From Escherichia coli (GTDB lineage Bacteria > Pseudomonadota > Gammaproteobacteria > Enterobacterales > Enterobacteriaceae): DNA of 64,000 bases. The translations under genes were made by a program, and so were the position numbers. The stretch is taken from assembly GCF_036507355.1 (NCBI RefSeq), contig NZ_AP027877.1. One strand, written 5' to 3'. This document shows positions 2,098 to 33,667 of the stretch, piece by piece. The notes under the pieces are model-generated. The model saw only the letters and a program-made list of their open reading frames with translations. It was not told the origin of the DNA and did no database searches. Position 1 is the stretch's first letter. Each line of letters begins with the position of its first letter.

Positions 2098-4774
2098 CGA
2101 ACCCTTACGTCCCGACCCCGATCGTCTGCTGGAACAAACTGCCGCGCCGCATCGGGGGAAGCTGAAAGTTTTCTTCGGTGCCTGCGCAGGCGTCGGGAAG
2201 ACCTGGGCGATGCTGGCAGAAGCCCAGCGACTGCGGGCGCAAGGGCTGGATATTGTGGTTGGCGTGGTAGAAACCCACGGGCGGAAAGATACCGCCGCCA
2301 TGCTGGAAGGGCTGGCTGTTCTGCCGCCAAAACGCCTGGCGTACCGTGGGCGGCACATCAGCGAGTTTGATCTCGATGCCGCCCTCGCCCGCCGTCCGGC
2401 GCTGATCTTAATGGACGAACTGGCGCACAGTAATGCGCCAGGTTCTCGTCATCCTAAACGCTGGCAGGATATCGAAGAACTGCTGGAAGCTGGCATTGAT
2501 GTTTTCACAACCGTCAACGTTCAGCATCTGGAAAGTCTGAATGATGTGGTCAGCGGCGTCACCGGAATTCAGGTACGGGAAACCGTGCCCGATCCTTTTT
2601 TCGATGCCGCCGACGACGTGGTGCTGGTGGACTTGCCCCCGGACGATCTGCGCCAGCGGCTGAAAGAAGGCAAAGTCTATATTGCCGGGCAGGCGGAGCG
2701 CGCCATTGAACATTTTTTCCGCAAAGGCAATCTGATCGCCCTGCGCGAACTGGCACTGCGCCGTACTGCCGATCGCGTTGATGAGCAAATGCGCGCCTGG
2801 CGGGGGCATCCTGGCGAAGAGAAAGTGTGGCACACGCGCGACGCGATCCTTTTATGCATCGGGCATAACACCGGCAGTGAGAAACTGGTCCGCGCGGCGG
2901 CGCGGCTGGCGTCGCGGCTGGGTAGCGTCTGGCACGCGGTGTATGTTGAAACCCCTGCCCTGCATCGCTTACCGGAGAAAAAACGTCGGGCAATTCTCAG
3001 CGCCTTACGTCTGGCGCAGGAGCTGGGCGCGGAGACGGCAACACTTTCTGATCCAGCGGAAGAGAAAGCGGTAGTGCGTTATGCCCGTGAACATAATCTC
3101 GGCAAGATTATTCTCGGTCGCCCAGCCTCGCGCCGCTGGTGGCGTCGGGAAACGTTTGCTGACCGACTGGCGCGCATCGCCCCCGATCTCGATCAGGTGC
3201 TGGTCGCGCTTGATGAACCACCCGCCCGCACGATTAACAACGCGCCGGATAGCCGCTCTTTTAAAGACAAGTGGCGGGTACAGATTCAGGGATGCGTGGT
3301 TGCCGCCGCGTTATGCGCCGTTATCACCTTAATTGCCATGCAGTGGCTGATGGCGTTTGATGCCGCCAATCTGGTGATGCTGTATCTGCTTGGCGTGGTG
3401 GTGGTGGCGCTATTTTATGGACGCTGGCCTTCGGTGGTTGCCACCGTCATTAATGTGGTGAGTTTCGATCTCTTTTTTATCGCCCCACGCGGCACGCTCG
3501 CCGTCTCTGATGTGCAATATCTGCTGACCTTCGCGGTGATGTTAACCGTCGGGCTGGTGATCGGGAACCTTACTGCTGGCGTGCGTTATCAGGCGCGGGT
3601 AGCCCGTTACCGCGAACAACGCACACGGCACTTATATGAAATGTCGAAAGCTCTGGCGGTGGGCCGCAGTCCGCAGGACATCGCCGCCACCAGCGAACAA
3701 TTTATTGCCTCCACGTTTCATGCCCGCAGCCAGGTATTGTTACCCGATGACAACGGTAAATTGCAGCCGTTAACGCATCCGCAAGGAATGACGCCGTGGG
3801 ACGATGCCATCGCGCAGTGGAGTTTTGATAAAGGCCTGCCTGCGGGTGCGGGCACCGACACGTTACCCGGCGTGCCATACCAGATTTTGCCGTTAAAAAG
3901 CGGTGAGAAAACTTACGGGCTGGTGGTGGTGGAACCGGGGAATCTGCGCCAGTTGATGATCCCGGAACAGCAGCGCCTGCTGGAGACGTTTACGCTGTTA
4001 GTCGCCAATGCCCTTGAGCGGCTGACGCTGACCGCCAGCGAAGAACAGGCGCGGATGGCAAGTGAACGTGAACAGATCCGCAACGCTCTGCTGGCGGCGC
4101 TTTCGCACGATTTACGCACTCCGCTCACGGTGTTGTTCGGTCAGGCAGAAATCTTAACGCTCGATCTGGCAAGCGAAGGATCGCCCCACGCCCGCCAGGC
4201 CAGCGAGATTCGTCAGCATGTGCTGAACACTACCCGACTGGTGAATAATCTACTGGATATGGCGCGAATTCAGTCCGGCGGCTTTAATTTGAAGAAAGAG
4301 TGGTTAACGCTGGAAGAAGTAGTCGGCAGCGCGCTGCAAATGCTGGAACCGGGTTTATCGTCGCCCATCAATCTTTCTCTGCCAGAACCGCTGACCTTAA
4401 TCCACGTTGACGGGCCACTCTTTGAACGGGTGCTGATTAATCTGCTGGAGAACGCGGTGAAATATGCGGGTGCGCAGGCCGAAATTGGTATCGATGCCCA
4501 CGTTGAGGGCGAAAATCTACAACTGGATGTCTGGGATAACGGCCCCGGCCTTCCGCCAGGCCAGGAGCAGACGATATTTGATAAGTTTGCTCGCGGGAAT
4601 AAAGAGTCGGCAGTACCGGGGGTAGGGCTTGGACTGGCAATTTGTCGGGCGATAGTGGATGTACACGGGGGCACTATTACCGCGTTCAACCGACCGGAAG
4701 GTGGTGCCTGTTTTCGTGTTACACTTCCCCAGCAAACTGCCCCTGAACTTGAAGAATTTCATGAGGATATGTGA
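2090..4774 (+). CDS. kdpD: Sensor histidine kinase KdpD (894 aa)
   Basis: ORF 2057..4774; ATG at 2090 gives [10 protein letters not shown]...; Walker-A-like GACAGVGKT, four TM helices, H-box LSHDLRTPL, HATPase domain; overlaps kdpC stop by 8 nt. Confidence 0.95.
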
Positions 4775-5448
4775 CAAACGTTCTGATTGTTGAAGATGAA
4801 CAAGCTATTCGTCGCTTTCTGCGCACGGCGCTGGAGGGCGACGGTATGCGCGTCTTTGAGGCCGAAACGCTGCAACGCGGCTTGCTGGAAGCGGCAACCC
4901 GTAAGCCAGATTTGATTATTCTCGATCTCGGCCTGCCCGATGGTGATGGGATTGAGTTTATCCGCGACCTGCGCCAGTGGAGCGCGGTGCCGGTGATAGT
5001 GCTTTCCGCACGCAGCGAAGAGAGCGACAAAATCGCCGCGCTGGATGCCGGAGCGGATGATTATCTGAGTAAGCCGTTTGGCATTGGCGAATTGCAGGCC
5101 CGTCTGCGCGTCGCATTACGCCGCCATTCAGCCACTGCCGCGCCCGATCCGCTGGTGAAATTTTCCGATGTGACCGTCGATTTAGCCGCCCGCGTGATCC
5201 ATCGGGGCGAGGAAGAGGTGCATCTCACGCCGATTGAGTTCCGCCTGCTGGCGGTGCTGCTCAACAATACCGGAAAAGTGCTCACCCAGCGCCAGCTCCT
5301 TAACCAGGTGTGGGGGCCAAACGCGGTCGAACACAGTCATTATTTGCGTATTTATATGGGGCATCTGCGACAAAAACTGGAGCAGGATCCCGCCCGCCCC
5401 CGCCATTTCATTACCGAAACCGGTATTGGGTATCGGTTTATGCTTTAG
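4771..5448 (+). CDS. kdpE: OmpR-family response regulator KdpE (225 aa), GTG start overlapping kdpD stop
   Basis: ORF 4771..5448; receiver domain (LIILDLGLPDGDG) plus winged-helix output domain; 4-nt overlap with kdpD. Confidence 0.95.
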   Translation: MTNVLIVEDEQAIRRFLRTALEGDGMRVFEAETLQRGLLEAATRKPDLIILDLGLPDGDGIEFIRDLRQWSAVPVIVLSARSEESDKIAALDAGADDYLSKPFGIGELQARLRVALRRHSATAAPDPLVKFSDVTVDLAARVIHRGEEEVHLTPIEFRLLAVLLNNTGKVLTQRQLLNQVWGPNAVEHSHYLRIYMGHLRQKLEQDPARPRHFITETGIGYRFML

Positions 5449-5726
5449 GGGTTGAAATGCCGGATGCGGCGTAAACGCCTTATCCAGCCTACTCATCGTC
5501 CCGTAGGCATGATAAGACGCGTCAGCGTCGCATCAGGCATGGCTCTGTGAATAACGTCGGCAAAAACTGGAAAAAGACCCCGCCCTCGCCATTTTATTAC
5601 CGAAACCGGTATTGGGTATCGGTTTATGCTTTAGGGGCTGACTTGCCGGATGCGGCGTGAACGCCTTATCCAGCCTACTCATCGTCCCGTAGGCATGATA
5701 AGACGCGTCAGCGTCGCATCAGGCAT
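5371..5726. repeat. Imperfect tandem duplication (about 170 bp x 2; copy 1 about 5371..5540, copy 2 about 5561..5726) of the kdpE 3' end plus a REP pair
   Basis: Second copy repeats 'caaaaactgg...ccgaaaccggtattgggtatcggtttatgctttagggg...gccggatgcggcgt(a/g)aacgccttatccagcctactcatcgtcccgtaggcatgataagacgcgtcagcgtcgcatcaggcat' with scattered substitutions. Confidence 0.85.
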
Positions 5727-5747
5727 TGGCACTCATGGCTAAATATT

Positions 5748-6242
5748 TTAATGTGTATTTATCGCTTTCAACTCTTGCTGGCATTTTTCTGACTGGCAGC
5801 GTCGCAACTCAATAATCCCGACATGCATCATCGAGCCAATAAAGCCGCTTTCGCTGACATAATCCTCATTAACTATCGGTCGAGTGCCGGGCTTGCCCTG
5901 GCAAACCAGCATAAAAAATGAGGTGTAGCACTGCCAGCCGGGATTTAAACCGGCTTTTTCTTGTGCTGACATATCGTGAAGATAAATAAGTTCTTTTTCG
6001 TTCCCGCCTGACAACTGCCAGCGGCGGGTATTATCAGGTAAGTTATCGCTACAACAATTTGTCTTACACCGGGAAGGCGCAATATTTACCGCAATGCTAC
6101 CCTTTAACCCTCTGGTTTTATCTTTAGGGGTCAGTAACCAGTCGCCAGCTAATGATGATTGTTCAGGTTGGGCACATGCAGTCAGCAGTAGTGTGGCGGC
6201 AATGAATGTTACTCTTACGACCAGACTCCTTTTGGTCTTCAT
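5748..6242 (-). CDS. ybfP: Small lipoprotein YbfP (164 aa)
   Basis: ORF 5748..6242; signal peptide with lipobox LLTAC-A; family member recalled from E. coli. Confidence 0.85.
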   Translation of the reverse strand: MKTKRSLVVRVTFIAATLLLTACAQPEQSSLAGDWLLTPKDKTRGLKGSIAVNIAPSRCKTNCCSDNLPDNTRRWQLSGGNEKELIYLHDMSAQEKAGLNPGWQCYTSFFMLVCQGKPGTRPIVNEDYVSESGFIGSMMHVGIIELRRCQSEKCQQELKAINTH

Positions 6243-6293
6243 TTTGAATTCCCTTGAGCTATTCAGTTTGTTGGCAAAGTGCGCGTTGTTTTT

Positions 6294-6327
<34 letters not shown>

Positions 6328-6373
6328 GAAATGATGCAAATTCAATATATTGCACCATCAGGCAGTCATACGT

Positions 6374-6407
6374 AAAAAAGGGCGATCTTCCGACCGCCCT
6401 TTTTCTT
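6374..6407 (-). terminator. Rho-independent terminator downstream of pgm (A-tract/hairpin/T-tract, so potentially bidirectional)
   Basis: aaaaaagggcgatcttccgaccgccctttttctt: GC stem flanked by A and T runs, directly after the pgm stop. Confidence 0.6.
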
Positions 6408-6418
6408 ATTTAATGTGT

Positions 6419-8059
6419 TTACGCGTTTTTCAGAACTTCGCTAACAATCTCAACCGCTTCTTTCTCAATCTGCTTGCGATGTTCTTCACCGAGGAAGCTT
6501 TCGCAGTAGATCTTATATGCGTCTTCCGTGCCTGACGGACGCGCGGCGAACCAGCCGTTGTCAGTCATCACTTTCAGACCGCCAATAGAAGCACCGTTGC
6601 CCGGAGCAGCAGTCAGGCGCGCGGTGATCGGGTCACCTGCCAGGGTGCTGGCGCTCACCATTTCCGGAGACAGCTTAGACAGCGCCGCTTTTTGTGCGGA
6701 AGTCGCAGCTGCCTGCAAACGGTTGTAGCTCGGCGCACCAAAGCGTTTTGCCAGTTCGTTGTAGTGTTCCTGCGGGTTCTTACCGGTGACAGCGGTGATT
6801 TCCGCCGCCAGCAGACACATGATGATGCCGTCTTTGTCGGTGGACCACGGCGTGCCGTCGAAACGCAGGAAGGAAGCCCCTGCGCTCTCTTCGCCGCCAA
6901 AGCCGAAGCTGCCGTCGAACAGACCATCAACAAACCATTTGAAACCTACCGGGACTTCTACCAGCTTACGACCCAAGTCATTGACCACACGGTCGATCAT
7001 CGCAGAAGAAACCAGCGTTTTACCAACGGCAACATCTTTGCCCCACTGCGGACGATGCTGGAACAGGTAATTGATCGCCACCGCCAGGTAGTGGTTCGGA
7101 TTCATCAAACCTGCCGGAGTGACGATACCGTGACGGTCATAATCCGGGTCGTTAGCAAAAGCCAGATCGAACTTATCACGCAGTGCCAGCAGGCCCGCCA
7201 TCGCACACTCGGAGGAGCAGTCCATACGGATCGCGCCGTCTTTATCAAGGTGCATAAAGCGGAAGGTTTGATCGACCTGATTGTTAACGATGGTCAGGTT
7301 GAGGTTGTAATACTCGCCAATACGCTTCCAGTATTCGATACCGGAACCGCCCAGCGGATCAACGCCAAGCGTCAGGCCCGCTTTCTGAATCGCCGCCATA
7401 TCAACGATATCGGCCAGCCCTTCCACGAACGGCTGCACCAGATCCTGCTCTTTCACATGACCGGATGCCATCGCTTCGTCGAGGGAGATACGCTTCACGC
7501 CTTTCAGGCCATCGGCCAGCAGTGCGTTGGCTCTGTCTTCCACCACTTTAGTGACGTTGGTATCTGCCGGGCCACCATTTGGCGGATTGTATTTGATTCC
7601 ACCATCTTCCGGCGGGTTATGGGACGGTGTAATCACGATACCGTCTGCCAGCGGGCCACCTTTTTTATTGTGAACCAGGATGGCATTGGAAACGGCAGGC
7701 GTCGGGGTGAAGCCATTGTTTTCCTGCACAATAACATCTACGCCGTTCGCTGCCAGCACTTCCAGAACGGAAATAAATGCAGGTTCGGACAGGGCGTGAG
7801 TATCTTTACCCACATAGCAAGGGCCAGTGATGCCGTTTTTCGCACGTTCTTCAGCAATTGCCTGAGCGATCGCCAGAATGTGCGGCTCGTTAAAGCTGTG
7901 GCGCGCTGCACTGCCACGGTGACCGGAAGTACCGAATTTCACCGCGTGCTCCGCATTCCCTGCTTCTGGTTTCAGTACATAATATTGCGCCGTCAGTTGG
8001 GCGACGTTAATCAAATCACTCTGTTGTGCAGGTTGGCCTGCACGATTGTGGATTGCCAT
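6419..8059 (-). CDS. pgm: Phosphoglucomutase (546 aa)
   Basis: ORF 6419..8110; ATG at 8059 gives [15 protein letters not shown]...; active-site [11 protein letters not shown] motif. Confidence 0.95.
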
Positions 8060-10151: not shown

Positions 10152-10682
10152 ATGGCTATCACTGGCATCTTTTTCGGCAGCGACACCGGTAATACCGAAA
10201 ATATCGCAAAAATGATTCAAAAACAGCTTGGTAAAGACGTTGCCGATGTCCATGACATTGCAAAAAGCAGCAAAGAAGATCTGGAAGCTTATGACATTCT
10301 GCTGCTGGGCATCCCAACCTGGTATTACGGCGAAGCGCAGTGTGACTGGGATGACTTCTTCCCGACTCTCGAAGAGATTGATTTCAATGGCAAACTGGTT
10401 GCGCTGTTTGGTTGTGGTGACCAGGAAGATTACGCCGAATATTTCTGCGACGCATTGGGCACCATCCGCGACATCATTGAACCGCGCGGTGCAACCATCG
10501 TTGGTCACTGGCCAACTGCGGGCTATCATTTCGAAGCATCAAAAGGTCTGGCAGATGACGACCACTTTGTCGGTCTGGCTATCGACGAAGACCGTCAGCC
10601 GGAACTGACCGCTGAACGTGTAGAAAAATGGGTTAAACAGATTTCTGAAGAGTTGCATCTCGACGAAATTCTCAATGCCTGA
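10152..10682 (+). CDS. fldA: Flavodoxin 1 (176 aa)
   Basis: ORF 10035..10682; ATG at 10152 gives [20 protein letters not shown]...; flavodoxin FMN-binding signature. Confidence 0.95.
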
Positions 10683-10887
10683 TGTGATGCGGCGTAGACT
10701 CATGTCTACGCCGTATTAATAGATAATGCCAATCAAAATAATTGCTACAAATTTGTAACTTTTGCTGTTGTACCTGTACAATGTTCCGGTGTTCAAGTGG
10801 CCTTGCCGTTGTAAATGTAAGCTGTGCCACGTTTTTATTAACAATATTTGCCAGGGACTTGTGGTTTTCATTTAGGCGTGGCAATTC

Positions 10888-10906
10888 TATAATGATACGC
10901 ATTATC
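10888..10906 (+). promoter_or_regulatory. Fur box (fur autoregulation operator) overlapping a TATAAT hexamer
   Basis: tataatgatacgcattatc matches the 19-bp Fur consensus GATAATGATAATCATTATC at 16/19 positions, immediately 5' of uof-fur. Confidence 0.65.
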
Positions 10907-10978
10907 TCAAGAGCAAATTCTGTCACTTCTTCTAATGAAGTGAACCGCTTAGTAACAGGACAGATTCCGCATGACTGA
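10892..10978 (+). CDS. uof: uof, 28-codon upstream ORF translationally coupled to fur
   Basis: ATG at 10892 gives MIRIISRANSVTSSNEVNRLVTGQIPHD; stop overlaps the fur start by 8 nt. Confidence 0.8.
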   Translation: MIRIISRANSVTSSNEVNRLVTGQIPHD

Positions 10979-11417
10979 TAACAATACCGCCCTAAAGAAA
11001 GCTGGCCTGAAAGTAACGCTTCCACGTTTAAAAATCCTGGAAGTTCTTCAGGAGCCGGACAACCATCACGTCAGTGCGGAAGATTTATACAAACGTCTGA
11101 TCGATATGGGTGAAGAAATTGGTCTGGCTACGGTATATCGCGTACTGAACCAGTTTGACGACGCTGGTATCGTCACCCGCCACAATTTTGAAGGCGGTAA
11201 ATCCGTATTTGAACTGACACAGCAACATCACCACGATCACCTGATCTGCCTCGACTGCGGCAAGGTTATCGAATTTAGTGATGATTCCATCGAAGCGCGT
11301 CAGCGTGAAATTGCCGCAAAACATGGCATTCGCCTGACTAACCACAGTCTCTATCTTTACGGTCACTGTGCCGAAGGCGATTGCCGCGAAGATGAGCACG
11401 CGCACGAAGGCAAATAA
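10971..11417 (+). CDS. fur: Ferric uptake regulator Fur (148 aa)
   Basis: ORF 10971..11417; MTDNNTALKKAGLKVTLPRLKILEVL...; HHHDH and CxxC metal-binding motifs. Confidence 0.97.
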   Translation: MTDNNTALKKAGLKVTLPRLKILEVLQEPDNHHVSAEDLYKRLIDMGEEIGLATVYRVLNQFDDAGIVTRHNFEGGKSVFELTQQHHHDHLICLDCGKVIEFSDDSIEARQREIAAKHGIRLTNHSLYLYGHCAEGDCREDEHAHEGK

Positions 11418-11432
11418 GCCAGTCTGAACGAG

Positions 11433-11462
11433 AAAAGCCAACCTGCGGGTTGGCTTTTTTAT
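11433..11462. terminator. Bidirectional rho-independent terminator between fur (+) and chiQ (-)
   Basis: aaaagccaacctgcgggttggcttttttat: perfect GC-rich hairpin with A and T tracts. Confidence 0.8.
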
Positions 11463-11500
11463 GCAAGGGAAATAAGAAAAGCGAGAGTTACAGCTCTCAC

Positions 11501-11827
11501 TTATTTGTTATTACTGCGAATTTCCTGCCAGACCTTATCACAATCGGCTTTCACCGCCTGATCATTTCCGGTTTGCGTTGCACGCAGACACTGCTGATAA
11601 TCCAGTACGCGTACACTTTCCTGGTCGGCAAACTGCTGATGTTGTTTCTCTTTCTTCAGCACGTTTAACACGCTCTGGCAGGCTTCAATTTTTTCTGGCG
11701 AACCTTGTGCGGTGTTGATACAGGCGCTGTATGCCTCTTTCAGACGGCTGTCTTCCTGTGGCGCGGTTGATTGCGCACAAGCCACCAGCCCCGATGCCAT
11801 CATGGCGATGAGAATCAGTTTTTTCAT
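11501..11827 (-). CDS. chiQ: Lipoprotein ChiQ/YbfN (108 aa), distal gene of the chiPQ operon
   Basis: ORF 11501..11827; signal peptide with lipobox LVAC-A; 49 bp downstream of chiP. Confidence 0.88.
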   Translation of the reverse strand: MKKLILIAMMASGLVACAQSTAPQEDSRLKEAYSACINTAQGSPEKIEACQSVLNVLKKEKQHQQFADQESVRVLDYQQCLRATQTGNDQAVKADCDKVWQEIRSNNK

Positions 11828-11876
11828 AGCAAATTCCTCAAACGTGCGGCAGGCACAAAACCTGCCGCGTCGGGCA

Positions 11877-13283
11877 TCAGAAGATGGTGAATGGTGCGAT
11901 TACCATAAATTTCACGTCACGCTCATCCTGGAAGATGTTGCCGTAACCACCGCCCCAGCTTGGGATGTCGGAGTGGTTGTCGTATTCGGTGAAATGCAGT
12001 TTGAACATCGTGCCTTTGGCGCGGCCGTCCTGAATGGTGTAGACCGCATCCAGGCTGTATGCAGACTCTTCAATAGTCCGGTTTTTGTCGTAGTACGCAT
12101 CCGGATTGCTCTGCCAGGTCGCAGGTTTAGCATCCCATGCGTAAACGTAGGAAGCGCCGATGGCGAAGCCTGGAAGATTCCAGTTTTTCAGGTCATACAT
12201 CGCACCGAAGAAGACCGCTTTTTCGCCGTTGGCGTTGAAGTCAGAACGGTTATCCCACCAGATATCCAGGCGACCGTTCGAGGAAGCGTAGGTTGGAGTC
12301 ATACGTTGCAGGAAGTATCCCTGCTGACCGTCAGCTTTAACCCAGGTGCCTTCGAGGCGCAAATCCACTACGTCAGCCGCCCGGTAACCAAAGGTCAACG
12401 CTTGCAGCCAGGCGGTGCCGTCATAAAGATCGTTGACGCTGCGATCGTCAACTTTATCGCGCGTACCGTAGAACTGGTAGCTGGTGGTTAACGGGCTACC
12501 GGCGATATCAAATTTGTAGCTGGCTTTGGCAAAGTATTGATCGATATACCCTTCCGCCTGACCAAATGCCGCTTCCAGTACGAAGTTATTTTTGAAGTCG
12601 TATTTCGCACCGATGGAGTGCAGATAATCAACTTTGGTAGTTTTATCGTTCTGATAAAACTCATCCATTTCCAGATGCCACGGTGCTTTGTATTCGTTGG
12701 TCCACATGTAGGAGAAACTCAACGCACCGGCATCGCCGTAATCAAAATTCGCTCCGGCTTCCGCACCCTGATAGGTACCTGGCATAAAGCTCCAGTGCGG
12801 CGCTAACAGCGTCTGACCGGTTGGCTGAATATAACCTGCCCTCGCCCAAACCGGACCGTATTTAAATTTGGCCGCAGCTTTATACAGGCTTATACCGCTT
12901 TTGTCGCCGGACCAGTCTTCGTCATAGGCTTTATTACTTTTTGAAAACGCGATTTCGTTCGGGTGAGAGCTGTCGCCGTTTTCCGCCATTTCAATCGCCG
13001 TAAACGCAGCAATATCAAGGCCGAACATATCAGCAGCATAACCGGACTGAAAATCGAGGTTGGCATTCCAGGTGGAGTGAGAAAGGTTGGTTTTGTATTT
13101 GTCGCCGTCGGTAACATCTTTACGGTCGCGTTCACGCTGCCAGTAATATATACCGCCGGTTAAGGTTGAATCGTCGATGAATCCTTCGGCGCGAGCCTCC
13201 GGCATTGCCATAAAGCCCGACATTGCTGTAACACCGGCGATAGCCAGCGCCAGCGTACTACGTTTGCCACTAAACGTACGCAT
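11877..13283 (-). CDS. chiP: Chitooligosaccharide-specific outer-membrane porin ChiP/YbfM (468 aa)
   Basis: ORF 11877..13283; signal peptide, OprD-like beta-barrel with C-terminal aromatic residue (F). Confidence 0.93.
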
Positions 13284-13400
13284 GGGTTAATCCTCTTTGA
13301 CGTATAAATTGCTGCACCAAAGGTGAACAGCGAAAAAAAATAAAAATTAAAAAAGTAGCGTTGAGAAAAGTCTCGCTGACTACAGGAACAGACTATTTTT
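13284..13400 (-). promoter_or_regulatory. chiP 5' leader and promoter-proximal region (expected ChiX sRNA pairing site and NagC control)
   Basis: AT-rich untranslated region directly upstream of the chiP start; regulation inferred from E. coli/Salmonella literature, not demonstrated here. Confidence 0.4.
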
Positions 13401-13632
13401 CGCGACGCGAATTATCAATCTCTTTCTGTAACCAGAATGTAAGAACATGAGCAACCGCACATATTTTGATGATTTTTGTTACAAGGCTTAAGTTTGCGGT
13501 TGAAAGGCTTGCAGAAGAATAAAAGCGTGAATTTCCAGCAAGATGAAAGCGGTTACATTTTATTTAATTATGTTTTGTTATTTTAAATTTATTTTATGGA
13601 TAAATTGCGAAGCGGAATTAATTCGCGAAGAA

Positions 13633-13665
13633 AAGCAGAAAAAACGCCGCTGAACGCGGCGTTTT
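13633..13665 (-). terminator. Rho-independent terminator of glnS
   Basis: Minus strand reads hairpin aacgccgcgttcagcggcgtt followed by a T-run, downstream of the glnS stop. Confidence 0.7.
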
Positions 13666-13685
13666 GGATTGTTTGCATATTTCTT

Positions 13686-13849
13686 GCCGGATGCGGCGTG
13701 AACGCCTTATCCGGCCTACAAAAGCACGCAAACTCAATATATTGCAGAGATCATGTAGGCCTGATAAGCGTAGCGCATCAGGCAATTTAGCGTTTGAAAC
13801 TGTTTGTCTGTTCCTTGCCGGATGTGGCGTAAATGCCTCACCCGGCCTG
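13686..13849. repeat. Cluster of three REP elements (BIME-like)
   Basis: gccggatgcggcgtgaacgccttatccggcctac / gtaggcctgataagcgtagcgcatcaggc / gccggatgtggcgtaaatgcctcacccggcctg. Confidence 0.85.
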
Positions 13850-13862
13850 GTAGAACTTAAAA

Positions 13863-15527
13863 TTACTCGCCTACTTTCGCCCAGGTATCACGCAGCCCAA
13901 CGGTGCGGTTAAATACCGGTTTTTCCGCCGTGGAATGGCGACTGTCGAGGCAGAAGTAACCTTCACGCTCAAACTGGAATGCTTTACCCGCTACCGCATC
14001 TTTCAGCGACGGTTCAGCAAAGCCCTGTTTGATCACCAGCGATTCAGGGTTAATCACCGACAGGAAATCATCCGCAGCACCTGGGTTCGGCACGCTGAAC
14101 AGACGGTCATACAAACGGATTTCAACCGGCAGCGCATGTGCCGCGCTCACCCAGTGAATAACGCCTTTCACTTTACGACCATCAGCCGGATCTTTGCTTA
14201 AGGTGTCGGCGTCATAAGTACAGAAGATGGTGGTGATATTACCTTCGGCATCTTTCTCGACGCGTTCTGCCTTAATCACATAAGCATTACGCAGACGCAC
14301 TTCTTTACCGAGCACCAGACGTTTGTACTGCTTGTTAGCTTCTTCGCGGAAATCGGCGCGATCGATCCAAATCTCACCGCTAAACGGCACCTGACGGCTC
14401 CCCATTTCCGGTTTGTTCGGATGGTTCGGCATGGTAACCATTTCGCCTTCGCCCTGATAGTTTTCGATAACCAGTTTCACCGGATCGATAACCGCCATTG
14501 CGCGCGGGGCGTTTTCGTTGAGATCTTCACGGATGCAGGATTCCAGCGACGCCATCTCAATGGTGTTGTCCTGCTTGGTCACGCCGATGCGTTTGCAGAA
14601 CTCACGAATAGAAGCCGCAGTGTAACCACGACGACGCAGACCGGAAATGGTCGGCATACGCGGGTCATCCCAGCCTTCAACGTGCTTATCGGTCACCAGC
14701 AGGTTCAGCTTACGCTTGGACATCACAGTGTATTCCAGATTCAGGCGCGAGAATTCGTATTGGCGCGGGTGAACAGGAATGGTGATGTTGTCCAGTACCC
14801 AGTCGTACAGACGACGGTTATCCTGGAACTCAAGCGTACACAGAGAGTGCGTAATACCTTCCAGGGCATCGCTGATGCAGTGGGTGAAGTCGTACATCGG
14901 GTAGATGCACCACTTGTTGCCAGTCTGGTGGTGTTCAGCAAATTTAATGCGGTACAGCACCGGATCGCGCATCACGATAAACGGTGAAGCCATGTCGATT
15001 TTCGCACGCAGGCAGGCTTTACCTTCTTCAAAACCGCCGGTACGCATTTTCTCGAACAGCGCCAGGTTCTCTTCAACGCTACGGTCGCGGTACGGGCTGT
15101 TTTTACCCGGCTGCGTCAGGGTGCCGCGGTATTCGCGGATCTGTTCCGGCGTCAGTTCATCAACGTACGCCAGGCCTTTATTGATCAGTTCGATCGCATA
15201 GGCGTGGAGCTGATCAAAATAATCGGAGGAGTAACGGACGTTACCAGACCAGTGAAAACCTAACCACTCTACGTCGTTTTTGATCGAATCGACATACTCG
15301 ATATCTTCTTTTACCGGGTTAGTGTCGTCGAAACGCAGGTTGCACTGGCCTTTATAGTCCTGGGCGATCCCGAAGTTCAGGCAGATAGATTTCGCATGGC
15401 CAATATGCAGATAGCCATTCGGCTCCGGCGGGAAACGGGTGTGTACTGTGGTGTGCTTACCACTGGCCAGATCTTCATCGATGATCTGACGGATAAAGTT
15501 AGTCGGGCGGGCTTCTGCCTCACTCAT
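13863..15527 (-). CDS. glnS: Glutaminyl-tRNA synthetase (554 aa)
   Basis: ORF 13863..15527; class I HIGH (LHIGHAKS) and KMSKS-type (VMSKR) motifs. Confidence 0.97.
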
Positions 15528-15649: not shown

Positions 15650-15690
15650 AAAAAAAGCGGCAGAGAAGATCTCCACCGCTTTTGCCAGTC
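15650..15690 (-). terminator. Rho-independent terminator of nagE
   Basis: Minus strand reads hairpin gcggtggagatcttctctgccgc followed by a T9 tract. Confidence 0.7.
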
Positions 15691-15703
15691 CCGCGTCATT
15701 GTT

Positions 15704-15777
15704 GGATGCGCGTCTTATCCAACCAGGACTGAGCTTTTGTAGGCCTGATAAGACGCGTCAAGCGTCGCATCAGGCAT
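15704..15777. repeat. REP elements
   Basis: ggatgcgcgtcttatccaacc ... gtaggcctgataagacgcgtcaagcgtcgcatcaggcat. Confidence 0.8.
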
Positions 15778-22107: not shown

Positions 22108-22140
22108 AACCACGTCTCAGGACGTGGTTTCTTATTTTTA
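22108..22140 (+). terminator. Rho-independent terminator of the nagBACD operon
   Basis: aaccacgtctcaggacgtggtttcttattttt: hairpin plus T-tract 6 nt after the nagD stop. Confidence 0.75.
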
Positions 22141-22358
22141 CCCATCATTAAAATCATTCCATTCAATAAAACCCGCCAAAAATTATCGATCCATCAATAA
22201 ATACATCACCGCACCCTCCCCTTTTTCACAAATCAGCAATCACCATTACGTTTTTTATTTTTTCACCGCCAAATCGCTTGCGCACAGTGCTGCTTTGCGG
22301 CATTTTTTTAAACAAGCAAACACAACAAGCAACAAATACCAGGTTAACGGAGAAGGTT

Positions 22359-24402: not shown

Positions 24403-24479
24403 GGCTACGTAGCTCAGTTGGTTAGAGCACATCACTCATAATGATGGGGTCACAGGTTCGAATCCCGTCGTAGCCACCA
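24403..24479 (+). tRNA. metT: tRNA-Met (anticodon CAU, elongator)
   Basis: GGCTACGTAGCTCAGTTGG...CGTCGTAGCCACCA; cloverleaf with anticodon loop cuCAUaa; encoded CCA. Confidence 0.95.
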
Positions 24480-24487
24480 TCTTTTTT

Positions 24488-24572
24488 GCGGGAGTGGCGA
24501 AATTGGTAGACGCACCAGATTTAGGTTCTGGCGCCGCAAGGTGTGCGAGTTCAAGTCTCGCCTCCCGCACCA
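24488..24572 (+). tRNA. leuW: tRNA-Leu (anticodon UAG), class II with long variable arm
   Basis: GCGGGAGTGGCGAAATTGG...CTCGCCTCCCGCACCA; anticodon loop uuUAGgu. Confidence 0.95.
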
Positions 24573-24595
24573 TTCACCAGAAAGCGTTGTACGGA

Positions 24596-24670
24596 TGGGG
24601 TATCGCCAAGCGGTAAGGCACCGGTTTTTGATACCGGCATTCCCTGGTTCGAATCCAGGTACCCCAGCCA
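24596..24670 (+). tRNA. glnU: tRNA-Gln (anticodon UUG)
   Basis: TGGGGTATCGCCAAGCGGTAAGGCACCGGTTTTTGATACCGG...CCCCAGCCA. Confidence 0.95.
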
Positions 24671-24704
24671 TCTTCTTCGAGTAAGCGGTTCACCGCCCGG
24701 TTAT

Positions 24705-24779
24705 TGGGGTATCGCCAAGCGGTAAGGCACCGGTTTTTGATACCGGCATTCCCTGGTTCGAATCCAGGTACCCCAGCCA
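24705..24779 (+). tRNA. glnW: tRNA-Gln (anticodon UUG), duplicate of the preceding gene
   Basis: Same sequence as glnU; the upstream spacer is also duplicated. Confidence 0.95.
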
Positions 24780-24794
24780 TCGAAGAAACAATCT

Positions 24795-24871
24795 GGCTAC
24801 GTAGCTCAGTTGGTTAGAGCACATCACTCATAATGATGGGGTCACAGGTTCGAATCCCGTCGTAGCCACCA
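24795..24871 (+). tRNA. metU: tRNA-Met (anticodon CAU, elongator), second copy
   Basis: Same sequence as metT. Confidence 0.95.
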
Positions 24872-24919
24872 AATTCTGAATGTGTCGAATATGTTCGGCA
24901 AATTCAAAAACCAATTTGT

Positions 24920-24994
24920 TGGGGTATCGCCAAGCGGTAAGGCACCGGATTCTGATTCCGGCATTCCGAGGTTCGAATCCTCGTACCCCAGCCA
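24920..24994 (+). tRNA. glnV: tRNA-Gln (anticodon CUG)
   Basis: TGGGGTATCGCCAAGCGGTAAGGCACCGGATTCTGATTCCGG...CCCCAGCCA. Confidence 0.95.
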
Positions 24995-25031
24995 ATTTAT
25001 TCAAGACGCTTACCTTGTAAGTGCACCCAGT

Positions 25032-25106
25032 TGGGGTATCGCCAAGCGGTAAGGCACCGGATTCTGATTCCGGCATTCCGAGGTTCGAATCCTCGTACCC
25101 CAGCCA
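25032..25106 (+). tRNA. glnX: tRNA-Gln (anticodon CUG), second copy
   Basis: Same sequence as glnV. Confidence 0.95.
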
Positions 25107-32267: not shown

Positions 32268-32589
32268 ATAACAATATTCTCCTATCCAACTTTGGCACAT
32301 CTATTGCTTTGTTATACAAGGCAAAGCTTTAACCAGCATCAGTACAACCCGGTTGCACCACAGCAATCCGCCGGTAGCACCAAAAGAGTGCATTTTAAGA
32401 ATTTTGCTTCGGAATGGTGCGGTGCACTTCGCAAAAACAAACAATAAAACATCAATATCTTTACATTTAGCCAAACTAAATGTTACCTAACAGTCACAAC
32501 ACTGCACAATAAAGTTGCAGACGATAACAACACAAACACTCACAACGGGTATCCATGCGTTCTTAACGCAGAAGATAAAGGAGTTGGAT

Positions 32590-33498
32590 ATGCAATTACG
32601 TAAACCTGCCACAGCAATCCTAGCCCTTGCGCTTTCCGCAGGACTGGCACAGGCAGATGACGCCGCCCCGGCAGCGGGCAGTACGCTGGACAAAATCGCC
32701 AAAAACGGCGTGATTGTCGTCGGTCACCGTGAATCTTCAGTACCTTTCTCTTATTACGACAATCAGCAAAAAGTGGTGGGTTATTCGCAGGATTACTCCA
32801 ACGCCATTGTTGAAGCAGTGAAAAAGAAACTCAACAAACCGGACTTGCAGGTGAAATTGATTCCGATCACCTCACAAAACCGTATTCCTCTTCTGCAAAA
32901 CGGCACTTTCGATTTTGAATGTGGTTCTACCACCAACAACGTCGAACGCCAAAAACAGGCGGCTTTCTCTGACACTATTTTCGTGGTCGGTACGCGCCTG
33001 TTGACCAAAAAGGGCGGCGATATCAAAGATTTTGCCGACCTGAAAGGCAAAGCCGTAGTCGTCACTTCCGGCACTACCTCTGAAGTTTTGCTCAACAAAC
33101 TGAATGAAGAGCAAAAAATGAATATGCGCATCATCAGCGCCAAAGATCACGGTGACTCTTTCCGTACCCTGGAAAGCGGTCGTGCCGTTGCCTTTATGAT
33201 GGATGATGCTCTGCTGGCCGGTGAACGTGCGAAAGCGAAGAAACCAGACAACTGGGATATCGTCGGCAAGCCGCAGTCTCAGGAAGCCTACGGTTGCATG
33301 TTGCGTAAAGACGATCCGCAGTTCAAAAAGCTGATGGATGACACTATCGCTCAGGTGCAGACCTCCGGCGAAGCGGAAAAATGGTTTGATAAATGGTTCA
33401 AAAATCCCATTCCGCCGAAAAACCTGAACATGAATTTCGAACTGTCAGACGAAATGAAAGCACTGTTCAAAGAACCGAATGACAAGGCACTGAACTAA
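32590..33498 (+). CDS. gltI: Glutamate/aspartate ABC transporter periplasmic binding protein GltI (302 aa)
   Basis: ORF 32515..33498; ATG at 32590 preceded by AAGGAG; signal peptide MQLRKPATAILALALSAGLAQA. Confidence 0.93.
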   Translation: MQLRKPATAILALALSAGLAQADDAAPAAGSTLDKIAKNGVIVVGHRESSVPFSYYDNQQKVVGYSQDYSNAIVEAVKKKLNKPDLQVKLIPITSQNRIPLLQNGTFDFECGSTTNNVERQKQAAFSDTIFVVGTRLLTKKGGDIKDFADLKGKAVVVTSGTTSEVLLNKLNEEQKMNMRIISAKDHGDSFRTLESGRAVAFMMDDALLAGERAKAKKPDNWDIVGKPQSQEAYGCMLRKDDPQFKKLMDDTIAQVQTSGEAEKWFDKWFKNPIPPKNLNMNFELSDEMKALFKEPNDKALN

Positions 33499-33654
33499 TT
33501 ACAAGAACCAGGGGCGGAAATTCTAGCCCTCTCGATTGTTACGTAGCACGGACAGACTATACGCCTGATGGTCGTTCCCCATCGGGCCTGAAAACCGCAA
33601 TACGCTGGGTAACAATCTTCGAGGGTAGCAGTTAACGCTGCTACCCTCTTTTTT
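33499..33654 (+). ncRNA. sroC: SroC sRNA (GcvB sponge) processed from the gltI-gltJ spacer; 5' end approximate
   Basis: The 169-bp gltI-gltJ spacer ends in hairpin gagggtagcagttaacgctgctaccctc plus T6; sequence recalled as the sroC locus of E. coli/Salmonella. Confidence 0.7.
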
Positions 33655-33667
33655 CTGGAGTAGATTT

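Follow-up and report, generated by a model that had tools for sequence, protein, structure and literature searches.

The window analysed here, a 64-kb stretch of Escherichia coli DNA, carries kdpC, kdpD, kdpE, a 299-nt spacer, ybfP, pgm, seqA, ybfF, ybfE, fldA and fur in this order, collinear with annotated E. coli records (Table 1). The length of the spacer agreed with the roughly 300 bp between the kdpE stop codon and ybfP given in a preliminary description of this DNA. Between glnS and the crcB side, the window was collinear with K-12 at about 98% identity, the IS5 of K-12 being the exception. No insertion sequences were found in the window, this IS5 also being missing. A Shigella origin was considered and rejected, as nothing in the sequence suggested one and the best matches were E. 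coli assemblies. The window is an ordinary segment of the E. coli chromosome. The KdpE product was identical to that of K-12 in 223 out of 225 residues, and pgm, the conserved gene that anchors the variable interval on its right, was collinear with the annotated gene (546 aa) in K-12 and in the complete genomes A30 and GPT24-02. The GC content of ybfP was 46%, compared with 57% for kdpE and 55-57% for pgm, kdpD and kdpE. Searches with YbfP matched only 27 protein clusters, all of them E. coli-like, and the exact protein of the window was listed in 154 blocks of the assembly collection. Two distant homologues were considered as loci from other species and rejected, one (P0010) being E. coli-like with a frameshifted ybfP and the other (P0020) a poor metagenome assembly of the K-12 type. 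An enrichment of ybfP in phylogroup A has been reported (PMC5422975). Between ybfP and pgm, the segment that begins with GTTTGTTGGCAAA had a homologue behind the potE terminator of both K-12 and E. albertii, positions 4149-4192 of the K-12 speF block aligning with 6262-6305 of the window (blastn).

Table 1. Features of the kdpE-pgm interval in the window.
Feature	Coordinates	Strand	Description
kdpE	4771-5448	+	Intact response regulator gene, 225 aa, stop TAG; open reading frame and annotation of collinear records
Repeat copy 1	5368-5546	+	Final 81 nt of kdpE (5368-5448, TAG included), REP pair 1, 7-nt flank
REP pair 1	5459-5539		Y-type REP 5459-5492, 10-nt linker, inverted Z-type REP 5503-5539
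Filler GTGAATAACGT	5547-5557		11 nt between the aligned copies; putative duplication join
Repeat copy 2	5558-5733	+	Non-coding kdpE-tail relic 5558-5634, REP pair 2 5645-5725, flank
REP pair 2	5645-5725		Y-type REP 5645-5678, inverted Z-type REP 5689-5725
ybfP	5748-6242	-	164-aa lipoprotein gene, convergent with kdpE; open reading frame and translation, K-12 annotation 'lipoprotein'
GTTTGTTGGCAAA... segment and REP	6262-6327	+	Between ybfP and pgm
pgm	6419-8059	-	Conserved right-hand anchor of the variable interval; open reading frame

The spacer had been described as an imperfect tandem duplication of the kdpE 3′ end and a REP pair, and our alignments confirmed it. Local pairwise alignment of 5368-5546 with 5558-5733 gave 180 columns, of which 164 were identical, 11 were mismatches and 5 contained gaps. 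Similarly, a repeat search paired 5393-5540 with 5579-5726 (148 nt, 96%) and found a more divergent 5′ extension (5368-5400 and 5558-5590, 79%, with a 4-nt indel). The two units are thus adjacent direct copies, 11 nt apart, with a similarity far above chance. Each of them contains the final 78-81 nt of kdpE including the stop codon; the relic in copy 2 has suffered a 4-nt deletion but kept its TAG. We considered whether a single REP-containing unit could have been spuriously doubled by assembly or sequencing, as REP-rich repeats are prone to misassembly and Tandem Repeats Finder called no array in 5000-6500. However, the copies differ at 11 positions plus indels, and the structure recurred with an identical 290-nt core in seven other assemblies, among them two complete genomes and a gut-metagenome contig of the single-copy form. 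Because the same tandem structure was carried by seven other assemblies, two of them complete genomes, an artefact is extremely unlikely.

Both REP pairs were predicted to fold into hairpins of about 35 bp (-49 and -50.6 kcal/mol, z = -6.0 and -5.0). Their Y-type members, imperfect palindromes of about 35 nt of the GCCGGATGCGGCG...CGCCTTATCCGGCCTAC type, matched the degenerate consensus with 0 mismatches, while none of the shuffled versions of the window gave a match to the Y-type or Z-type REP pattern. Additional REPs of the same type were located at 6294-6327 and 13686-13719. The REP-containing query had a median of 29 matches per E. coli genome, as expected of a dispersed repeat, and the organisation of each pair, with two inverted REPs, a short linker and a long hairpin, is that of a BIME. 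REP pairs 1 and 2 differed at only 1 of 81 positions and shared the variants CCAGCCTACTCAT, at which the single-copy alleles L005 and L009 carry CCGACCTACACAT. Therefore, the two pairs are mutual closest relatives and, as judged from these sequences, they arose from each other within their own haplotype group.

Neither speFL, speF, potE nor ybfG was detectable across the 64-kb window by tblastn and blastn, which bears out the reported absence of the K-12 speF-potE block. The K-12 gene order on which that comparison relied was essentially right, ybfP not being placed directly after kdpE in K-12. The K-12 order is kdpE-speFL-speF-potE-[kdpE-tail pseudogene]-ybfG-ybfP-pgm, ybfG being itself a pseudogene (DUF2625). 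K-12 thus carries its own duplicated kdpE tail, a pseudogene of 140 nt after potE annotated as 'winged helix-turn-helix domain-containing protein, incomplete' (SH05_RS07290), and two kdpE copies bracket speFL-speF-potE. The left side of this relic is joined to half a REP via a short filler. The segment following the potE terminator of K-12 recurs upstream of ybfP in the same genome, and it corresponds to the segment that precedes the potE-pgm REP pair in E. albertii; the K-12 relic was therefore joined at a REP. To judge from these sequences, K-12 seems to combine two haplotypes, one with speF-potE and one with ybfG-ybfP, in a hybrid arrangement.

The K-12 pseudogene and copy 2 of the window are both non-coding direct repeats of the kdpE 3′ end downstream of kdpE, both are joined on their left to a REP by a short filler and both mark where the kdp side of the interval gives way to its ybfP side. 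In contrast, the K-12 relic is 140 nt long and ends in TGA while that of copy 2 has about 80 nt and ends in TAG, and it lies away from kdpE, beyond the 4.2-kb speFL-speF-potE block, with ybfG next to it instead of a REP pair. Orthology of the two relics is not supported, as they start at different points (-80 in copy 2 and -140 in K-12, relative to the end of kdpE) and both flanks differ. They do share the variants CCTCGCC and TTTTATT, which we considered as evidence of common descent and rejected: both variants also occur in the functional kdpE of L009, TTTTATT occurs in those of Nissle and L011, and the K-12-type relic of L026 has neither. Because of this distribution, the sharing is not evidence of common descent, which the sequences do not support. 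The relics also differ in frequency, the K-12 type being present in 1819 out of 5426 genomes and the tandem in 2.

These frequencies were obtained by probing 5426 complete E. coli genomes. Full-length speF-potE was found in 5038 of them and no match at all in 295. In approximately 246 genomes kdpE was joined directly to ybfP, and nearly all of these (about 244 out of 246) had a single copy. In 319 genomes, a probe spanning the potE end, kdpE′ and ybfG of K-12 was matched through kdpE alone. Together with the 295 genomes without a match, these lend indirect support to a loss, rather than a relocation, of speF-potE in genomes of the speF-less type. Altogether, five arrangements were distinguished. 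Type I, kdpE-speFL-speF-potE-pgm, is that of Nissle 1917 and an O157-like strain; type II is the K-12 order with kdpE′ and ybfG; type III is the single-copy kdpE-REP pair-ybfP-pgm (strain 22a, L009, L013 and L015); type IV is the tandem of the window, found in two complete genomes, A30 (NZ_CP028745, isolated from a baboon) and GPT24-02 (NZ_OZ282453), as well as in the drafts L011, L014, L016 and L017; and type V is kdpE-ybfG-ybfP (CUWW10 and GF4-3, and KL53 with the same junction and an IS1). Among the complete genomes, the tandem junction was restricted to 2 out of 5426, a count obtained with a megablast query of 106 nt and possibly too low, and several draft assemblies also carried it, among them GCA_013080365, GCA_047765375, GCA_047978045 and GCA_039105445. 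Given the 295 genomes without a match and the 246 in which kdpE and ybfP are contiguous, the absence of speF-potE is a standing minority polymorphism, present in roughly 5-7% of complete E. coli genomes. The speF-less haplotype is found in hundreds of public genomes and the tandem is a rare sub-variant of it.

The window belongs to this haplotype, with kdpE and ybfP contiguous and no speFL, speF or potE between them. Its closest known relatives are the single-copy genomes, represented by 'capsule spontaneous mutant 22a' (NZ_CM187531), L009, L013 and L015, which have the same genes in the same order, no ybfG, a REP pair right after the kdpE stop codon and a convergent ybfP. They differ from the window in having one unit of kdpE tail and REP pair, with a spacer of 113 nt instead of 299 nt. 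The type V genomes CUWW10, GF4-3 and KL53 resemble the window in the natural loss of speFL-speF-potE with an intact kdpE but, unlike the window, they have kept ybfG and show neither a REP pair after kdpE nor a duplicated tail.

To place these arrangements in order, we took the gene order of outgroups from the loci of SpeF homologues. E. albertii, Salmonella enterica and Citrobacter braakii all presented kdpE-speFL-speF-potE-(...)-pgm, so the absence of speF-potE is derived. Outgroup loci sought through YbfP in genome contigs yielded only one contaminated MAG contig. The outgroup order, the restriction of YbfP to E. coli-like matches and the low GC content of ybfP together indicate that speF-potE is ancestral and that the arrangement of the window is derived. 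The preliminary description had left it at the operon being 'removed or never contained'; at the haplotype level, the derived state settles this in favour of a loss. The strain itself may have received the speF-less haplotype in finished form, if homologous recombination took place in the conserved flanks, kdp and pgm.

The same description had read the tandem as the scar of a REP-mediated removal of speF-potE, and this part was not borne out. According to that model, a REP-mediated deletion of speF-potE and ybfG from a K-12-like arrangement would have left the tandem behind. In favour of such a model, K-12 does have a pseudogene of the kdpE tail that lies between potE and ybfG, the shared CCTCGCC and TTTTATT variants could be added to it, and REP pairs might, speculatively, be hot spots of recombination. 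However, functional kdpE alleles also have these variants and the L026 relic does not, and the K-12 relic starts at -140 with another left flank and is followed by ybfG rather than by a REP pair. None of the speF-positive genomes examined (K-12, Nissle and E. albertii) had a REP pair after kdpE. Moreover, a chimeric probe for the intermediate, with potE, kdpE′, REP pair and ybfP contiguous, found it in 0 out of 5426 complete genomes; 70 matches with at least 80% coverage were considered and rejected as K-12-type variants with a decayed ybfG. By this probe, the 5426 genomes offered no undeleted progenitor in which speF-potE is flanked by the same REP pair and the 80-nt relic. Nor is the join of the window one of REP to REP, as it consists of a REP end, 7 nt, the 11-nt filler and kdpE codons, with no REP on its right side. 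The deletions that do occur between the two kdpE repeats of K-12 remove speF-potE and leave one kdpE joined to ybfG (CUWW10 and GF4-3), with the CUWW10 crossover falling within the final ~20 nt of the kdpE repeat. Finally, the model needs two or more deletions that occurred independently and that were each replaced by nearly the same REP pair. As far as the sequences tell, the tandem does not look like a speF-potE deletion scar, and we regard an origin of this kind as improbable.

We consider it probable instead that the tandem arose by a local duplication in a haplotype that was already speF-less, followed by a replacement of the kdpE allele. The starting haplotype would have been kdpE-REP pair-ybfP-pgm, from which the ancestral speFL-speF-potE was already absent. 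A segment of about 190 nt, made up of the kdpE end (~80 nt), the REP pair and a ~7-nt flank, would then have been duplicated in tandem once, through an illegitimate join adjoining the REP pair and including the 11-nt filler. Later homologous recombination, with a breakpoint in or just before REP pair 1, would have swapped the kdp genes for other kdpE alleles, and copy 2 would have remained as a frozen non-coding relic of the earlier one. We infer both this order of events, with duplication before allele replacement, and the direction of change between tandem and single-copy forms at the same ybfP allele. The differences between the copies were clustered, with 13 in 5368-5473 and 0 in 5474-5540 (Fisher p about 0.003), which fits a recombination breakpoint. 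The kdpE part of copy 1 was polymorphic among tandem-bearing genomes, and at least three copy-1 alleles (those of the window, L011 and L012) are attached to the 290-nt block 5458-5747. This block is invariant, five other tandem loci matching it at 100% identity. The flanks of the tandem loci were 97.7-99.0% identical on the left and 99.2-99.8% on the right. Regarding copy 2, the stretch 5579-5625 had a 100% match in the real kdpE of 12 complete genomes, and the relic matched the kdpE of L009, with the same variants, from CCCGCCCTCGCC up to the stop codon. Five out of the 7 substitutions between the copies fell at third codon positions (p = 0.045, a marginal value that depends on gap placement), which points to a difference between alleles rather than to in situ decay. 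Once formed, the tandem could collapse to one copy via recombination within the matching REP pairs. L013 and L015, whose YbfP is identical to that of the window, are single-copy, with the markers of copy 1 to the left and the flank of copy 2 to the right, a pattern as expected for such a collapse, although these two could alternatively be progenitors of the tandem.

Some observations do not favour a duplication as the initial event. Within its first 21 nt, copy 2 differs from L009, the real allele that matches it best, by 5 substitutions and a 4-nt deletion, which a simple duplication does not predict. In addition, the filler was searched for in the window, the compared loci and metagenome contigs and seen only in tandem loci (one metagenome match was unrelated, occurring by chance). 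A serious rival is a join between two alleles in one step, by unequal crossover or homology-facilitated illegitimate recombination. Here, an incoming kdp...kdpE(allele a)-REP pair would recombine homologously on the kdp side and, on the other side, illegitimately, next to the REP and with the 11-nt filler, into the kdpE of the resident (allele b), 80 nt ahead of the stop codon, stranding the resident tail as copy 2. The 140-nt relic of K-12 would share this mechanism, with speF-potE as the cargo. The match of copy 2 to a different real kdpE allele (in the 12 complete genomes and in L009) and the bias to third codon positions fit this reading as well. The K-12 relic points the same way, since all 6 of its differences from position 53 onward in the aligned segment are at third codon positions, it is also attached to half a REP by a short filler and the equivalence of its post-potE segment with the one before the E. 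albertii potE-pgm REP pair places its join at a REP. Nevertheless, donor and recipient REP pairs would have to be nearly identical (1 difference in 81, shared rare variants) next to kdpE tails that diverge by about 9%, which requires a later gene conversion, and a later crossover is the simpler explanation of the sharp drop at 5473, where 13 differences give way to none. The filler lacks a donor context in the sequences searched for this reading too. For these reasons, we find a one-step join rather unlikely. A broader possibility, which we put forward tentatively and with some doubt, is that the kdpE-pgm interval acts as a cassette-exchange site, occupied by speFL-speF-potE or by ybfG/ybfP, the stranded tails (140 nt in K-12 and 80 nt here) being independent footprints of a single kind of illegitimate joining next to REPs. 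If so, K-12 would be a hybrid of two haplotypes, its kdpE direct repeats would make speF-potE intrinsically deletable and recombination would use the end of kdpE as a joint repeatedly and not at random.

Tandem chromosomal duplications with a REP at the join point were reportedly described in Salmonella by Shyamala, Schneider and Ames (EMBO J 1990); their joins are said to be REP-to-REP exchanges and the duplications large. Like them, the repeat of the window is head-to-tail and one end of its unit abuts a REP pair. In contrast, the unit has only about 190 nt, that end lies ~7 nt outside the REP, the other end falls in coding sequence that has no REP and an 11-nt filler is placed between the two. 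Our literature search found no description of the tandem junction or of speF-potE-negative E. coli lineages. The speF-less haplotype and the tandem are both instances of well-known processes, namely cassette polymorphism at a site with conserved flanks, small REP-adjacent duplication and direct-repeat deletion. The window is an ordinary strain-to-strain structural variant that does not imply a new mechanism or element.

Regarding function, the sequence gives the duplication no evident role, and both kdpE and ybfP are intact. Between the two convergent genes lie two strong hairpins rather than a single one. The roles generally attributed to REP pairs are those of 3′ stabilisers or of barriers between transcripts; by analogy, the hairpins could play either role between the convergent kdp and ybfP transcripts. 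An Rfam scan of 5300-6450 gave no family match, and promoter and terminator scans gave only consensus-level matches at about background level.

These variants matter mainly for the hygiene of annotation and for population genetics. The acid-inducible ornithine decarboxylase/antiporter operon is missing at the kdpE-pgm locus from about 5-7% of complete E. coli genomes, and the K-12 kdpE repeats mediate its natural loss. Both the 'partial winged-helix' pseudogene of K-12 and the tandem of the window are recombination relics, not genes. The speF-less haplotype should have lost the low-pH-inducible exchange of ornithine and putrescine by SpeF and PotE, a predicted consequence that would be unsurprising. 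A negative result in the clinical ornithine decarboxylase test is not automatic, because the constitutive SpeF paralogue SpeC (66.8% identical) is encoded elsewhere (bioRxiv 10.64898/2026.06.11.731642), speC lying outside the 64-kb window. In Salmonella, speC served in one study to distinguish the ornithine-decarboxylase-positive serovar Pullorum from the negative serovar Gallinarum (PMC3768506).

In K-12, the kdpE 3′ end was directly repeated on either side of the speFL-speF-potE block, and naturally occurring derivatives from which the block had been deleted, with the order kdpE-ybfG-ybfP, were found in CUWW10 (L025), GF4-3 (L024) and KL53. Strain 2017-01-4CC presented a distinct, IS-associated way of losing speF-potE: an IS1 replaced the 3′ half of kdpD, kdpE, speF-potE and the kdpE relic (the non-coding copy of the kdpE 3′ end that follows potE in K-12-type loci), and the adjoining ybfG was intact (L008 5232-6049).

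The K-12 arrangement also contained two copies of a ~45-nt segment (GTTTGTTGGCAAA...TGCCG together with the first part of a REP), one located after the potE terminator and the other upstream of ybfP. In Escherichia albertii, the segment was located between the potE and pgm terminators. Its duplication in K-12, together with this position in E. albertii, suggests that the K-12 arrangement is a hybrid in which a REP marks the join between two haplotypes.

Coordinates of repeats, segments and RNA features in the window and in the K-12 (L001) and E. albertii (L019) loci
Feature	Location	Coordinates	Strand	Remark
kdpE 3′-end direct repeats, 140 nt	L001	3669-3809 and 8004-8144		~89% identical
~45-nt GTTTGTTGGCAAA segment	L001	7950-7995 and 9474-9515		
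~45-nt GTTTGTTGGCAAA segment	L019	9560-9600		
~45-nt GTTTGTTGGCAAA segment	Window	6262-6305		
sroC sRNA	Window	33494-33656		Rfam match
cspA-type thermoregulator leader	Window	62792-63234	minus	Rfam match
Cluster of seven tRNA genes	Window	24403-25103		Rfam match

The speF-potE alleles were unusually divergent within E. coli, the best match being 90-95% identical to K-12 (L001 4405-7919) in 1846 of the 5426 complete genomes surveyed, and the kdpE 3′ ends differed by 6-8% among E. coli genomes. The interval has the appearance of a recombination hot spot. In one Salmonella enterica genome (L022), a phage-type integrase gene and small phage-like genes (10239-14199) came directly past the gene downstream of potE, the place occupied by pgm in the other Salmonella locus (L021), and therefore the potE-pgm interval is also a prophage integration site.

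In a variant of the K-12 arrangement, present in 70 genomes, the kdpE relic was frameshifted and ybfG had an internal deletion (e.g. strain 104, L026 454-1102), so the K-12-type relic is old and decaying. In strain 104, an IS200C transposase gene (annotated tnpA) was located immediately past ybfP.

On the minus strand (that of ybfP), the kdpE 3′ coding end of the window contained a terminator-like element, in which a T run comes after a GC-rich hairpin (5379-5400); the matching stretch of the second tandem copy was the site of the substitutions and a 4-nt deletion.

Elsewhere, the window lacked the IS5 that K-12 carries between gltI and lnt (~32483-32490) and differed from K-12 by small intergenic lengths at 15681-15752 and 22129-22160. 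The Rfam matches were as expected for a K-12-like region. Finally, a YbfP 91% identical to that of the window was encoded on a 1.9-kb contig of a 'Collinsella sp.' MAG (L003, JAIJJM010000630.1), which is almost certainly an E. coli contamination of the bin.
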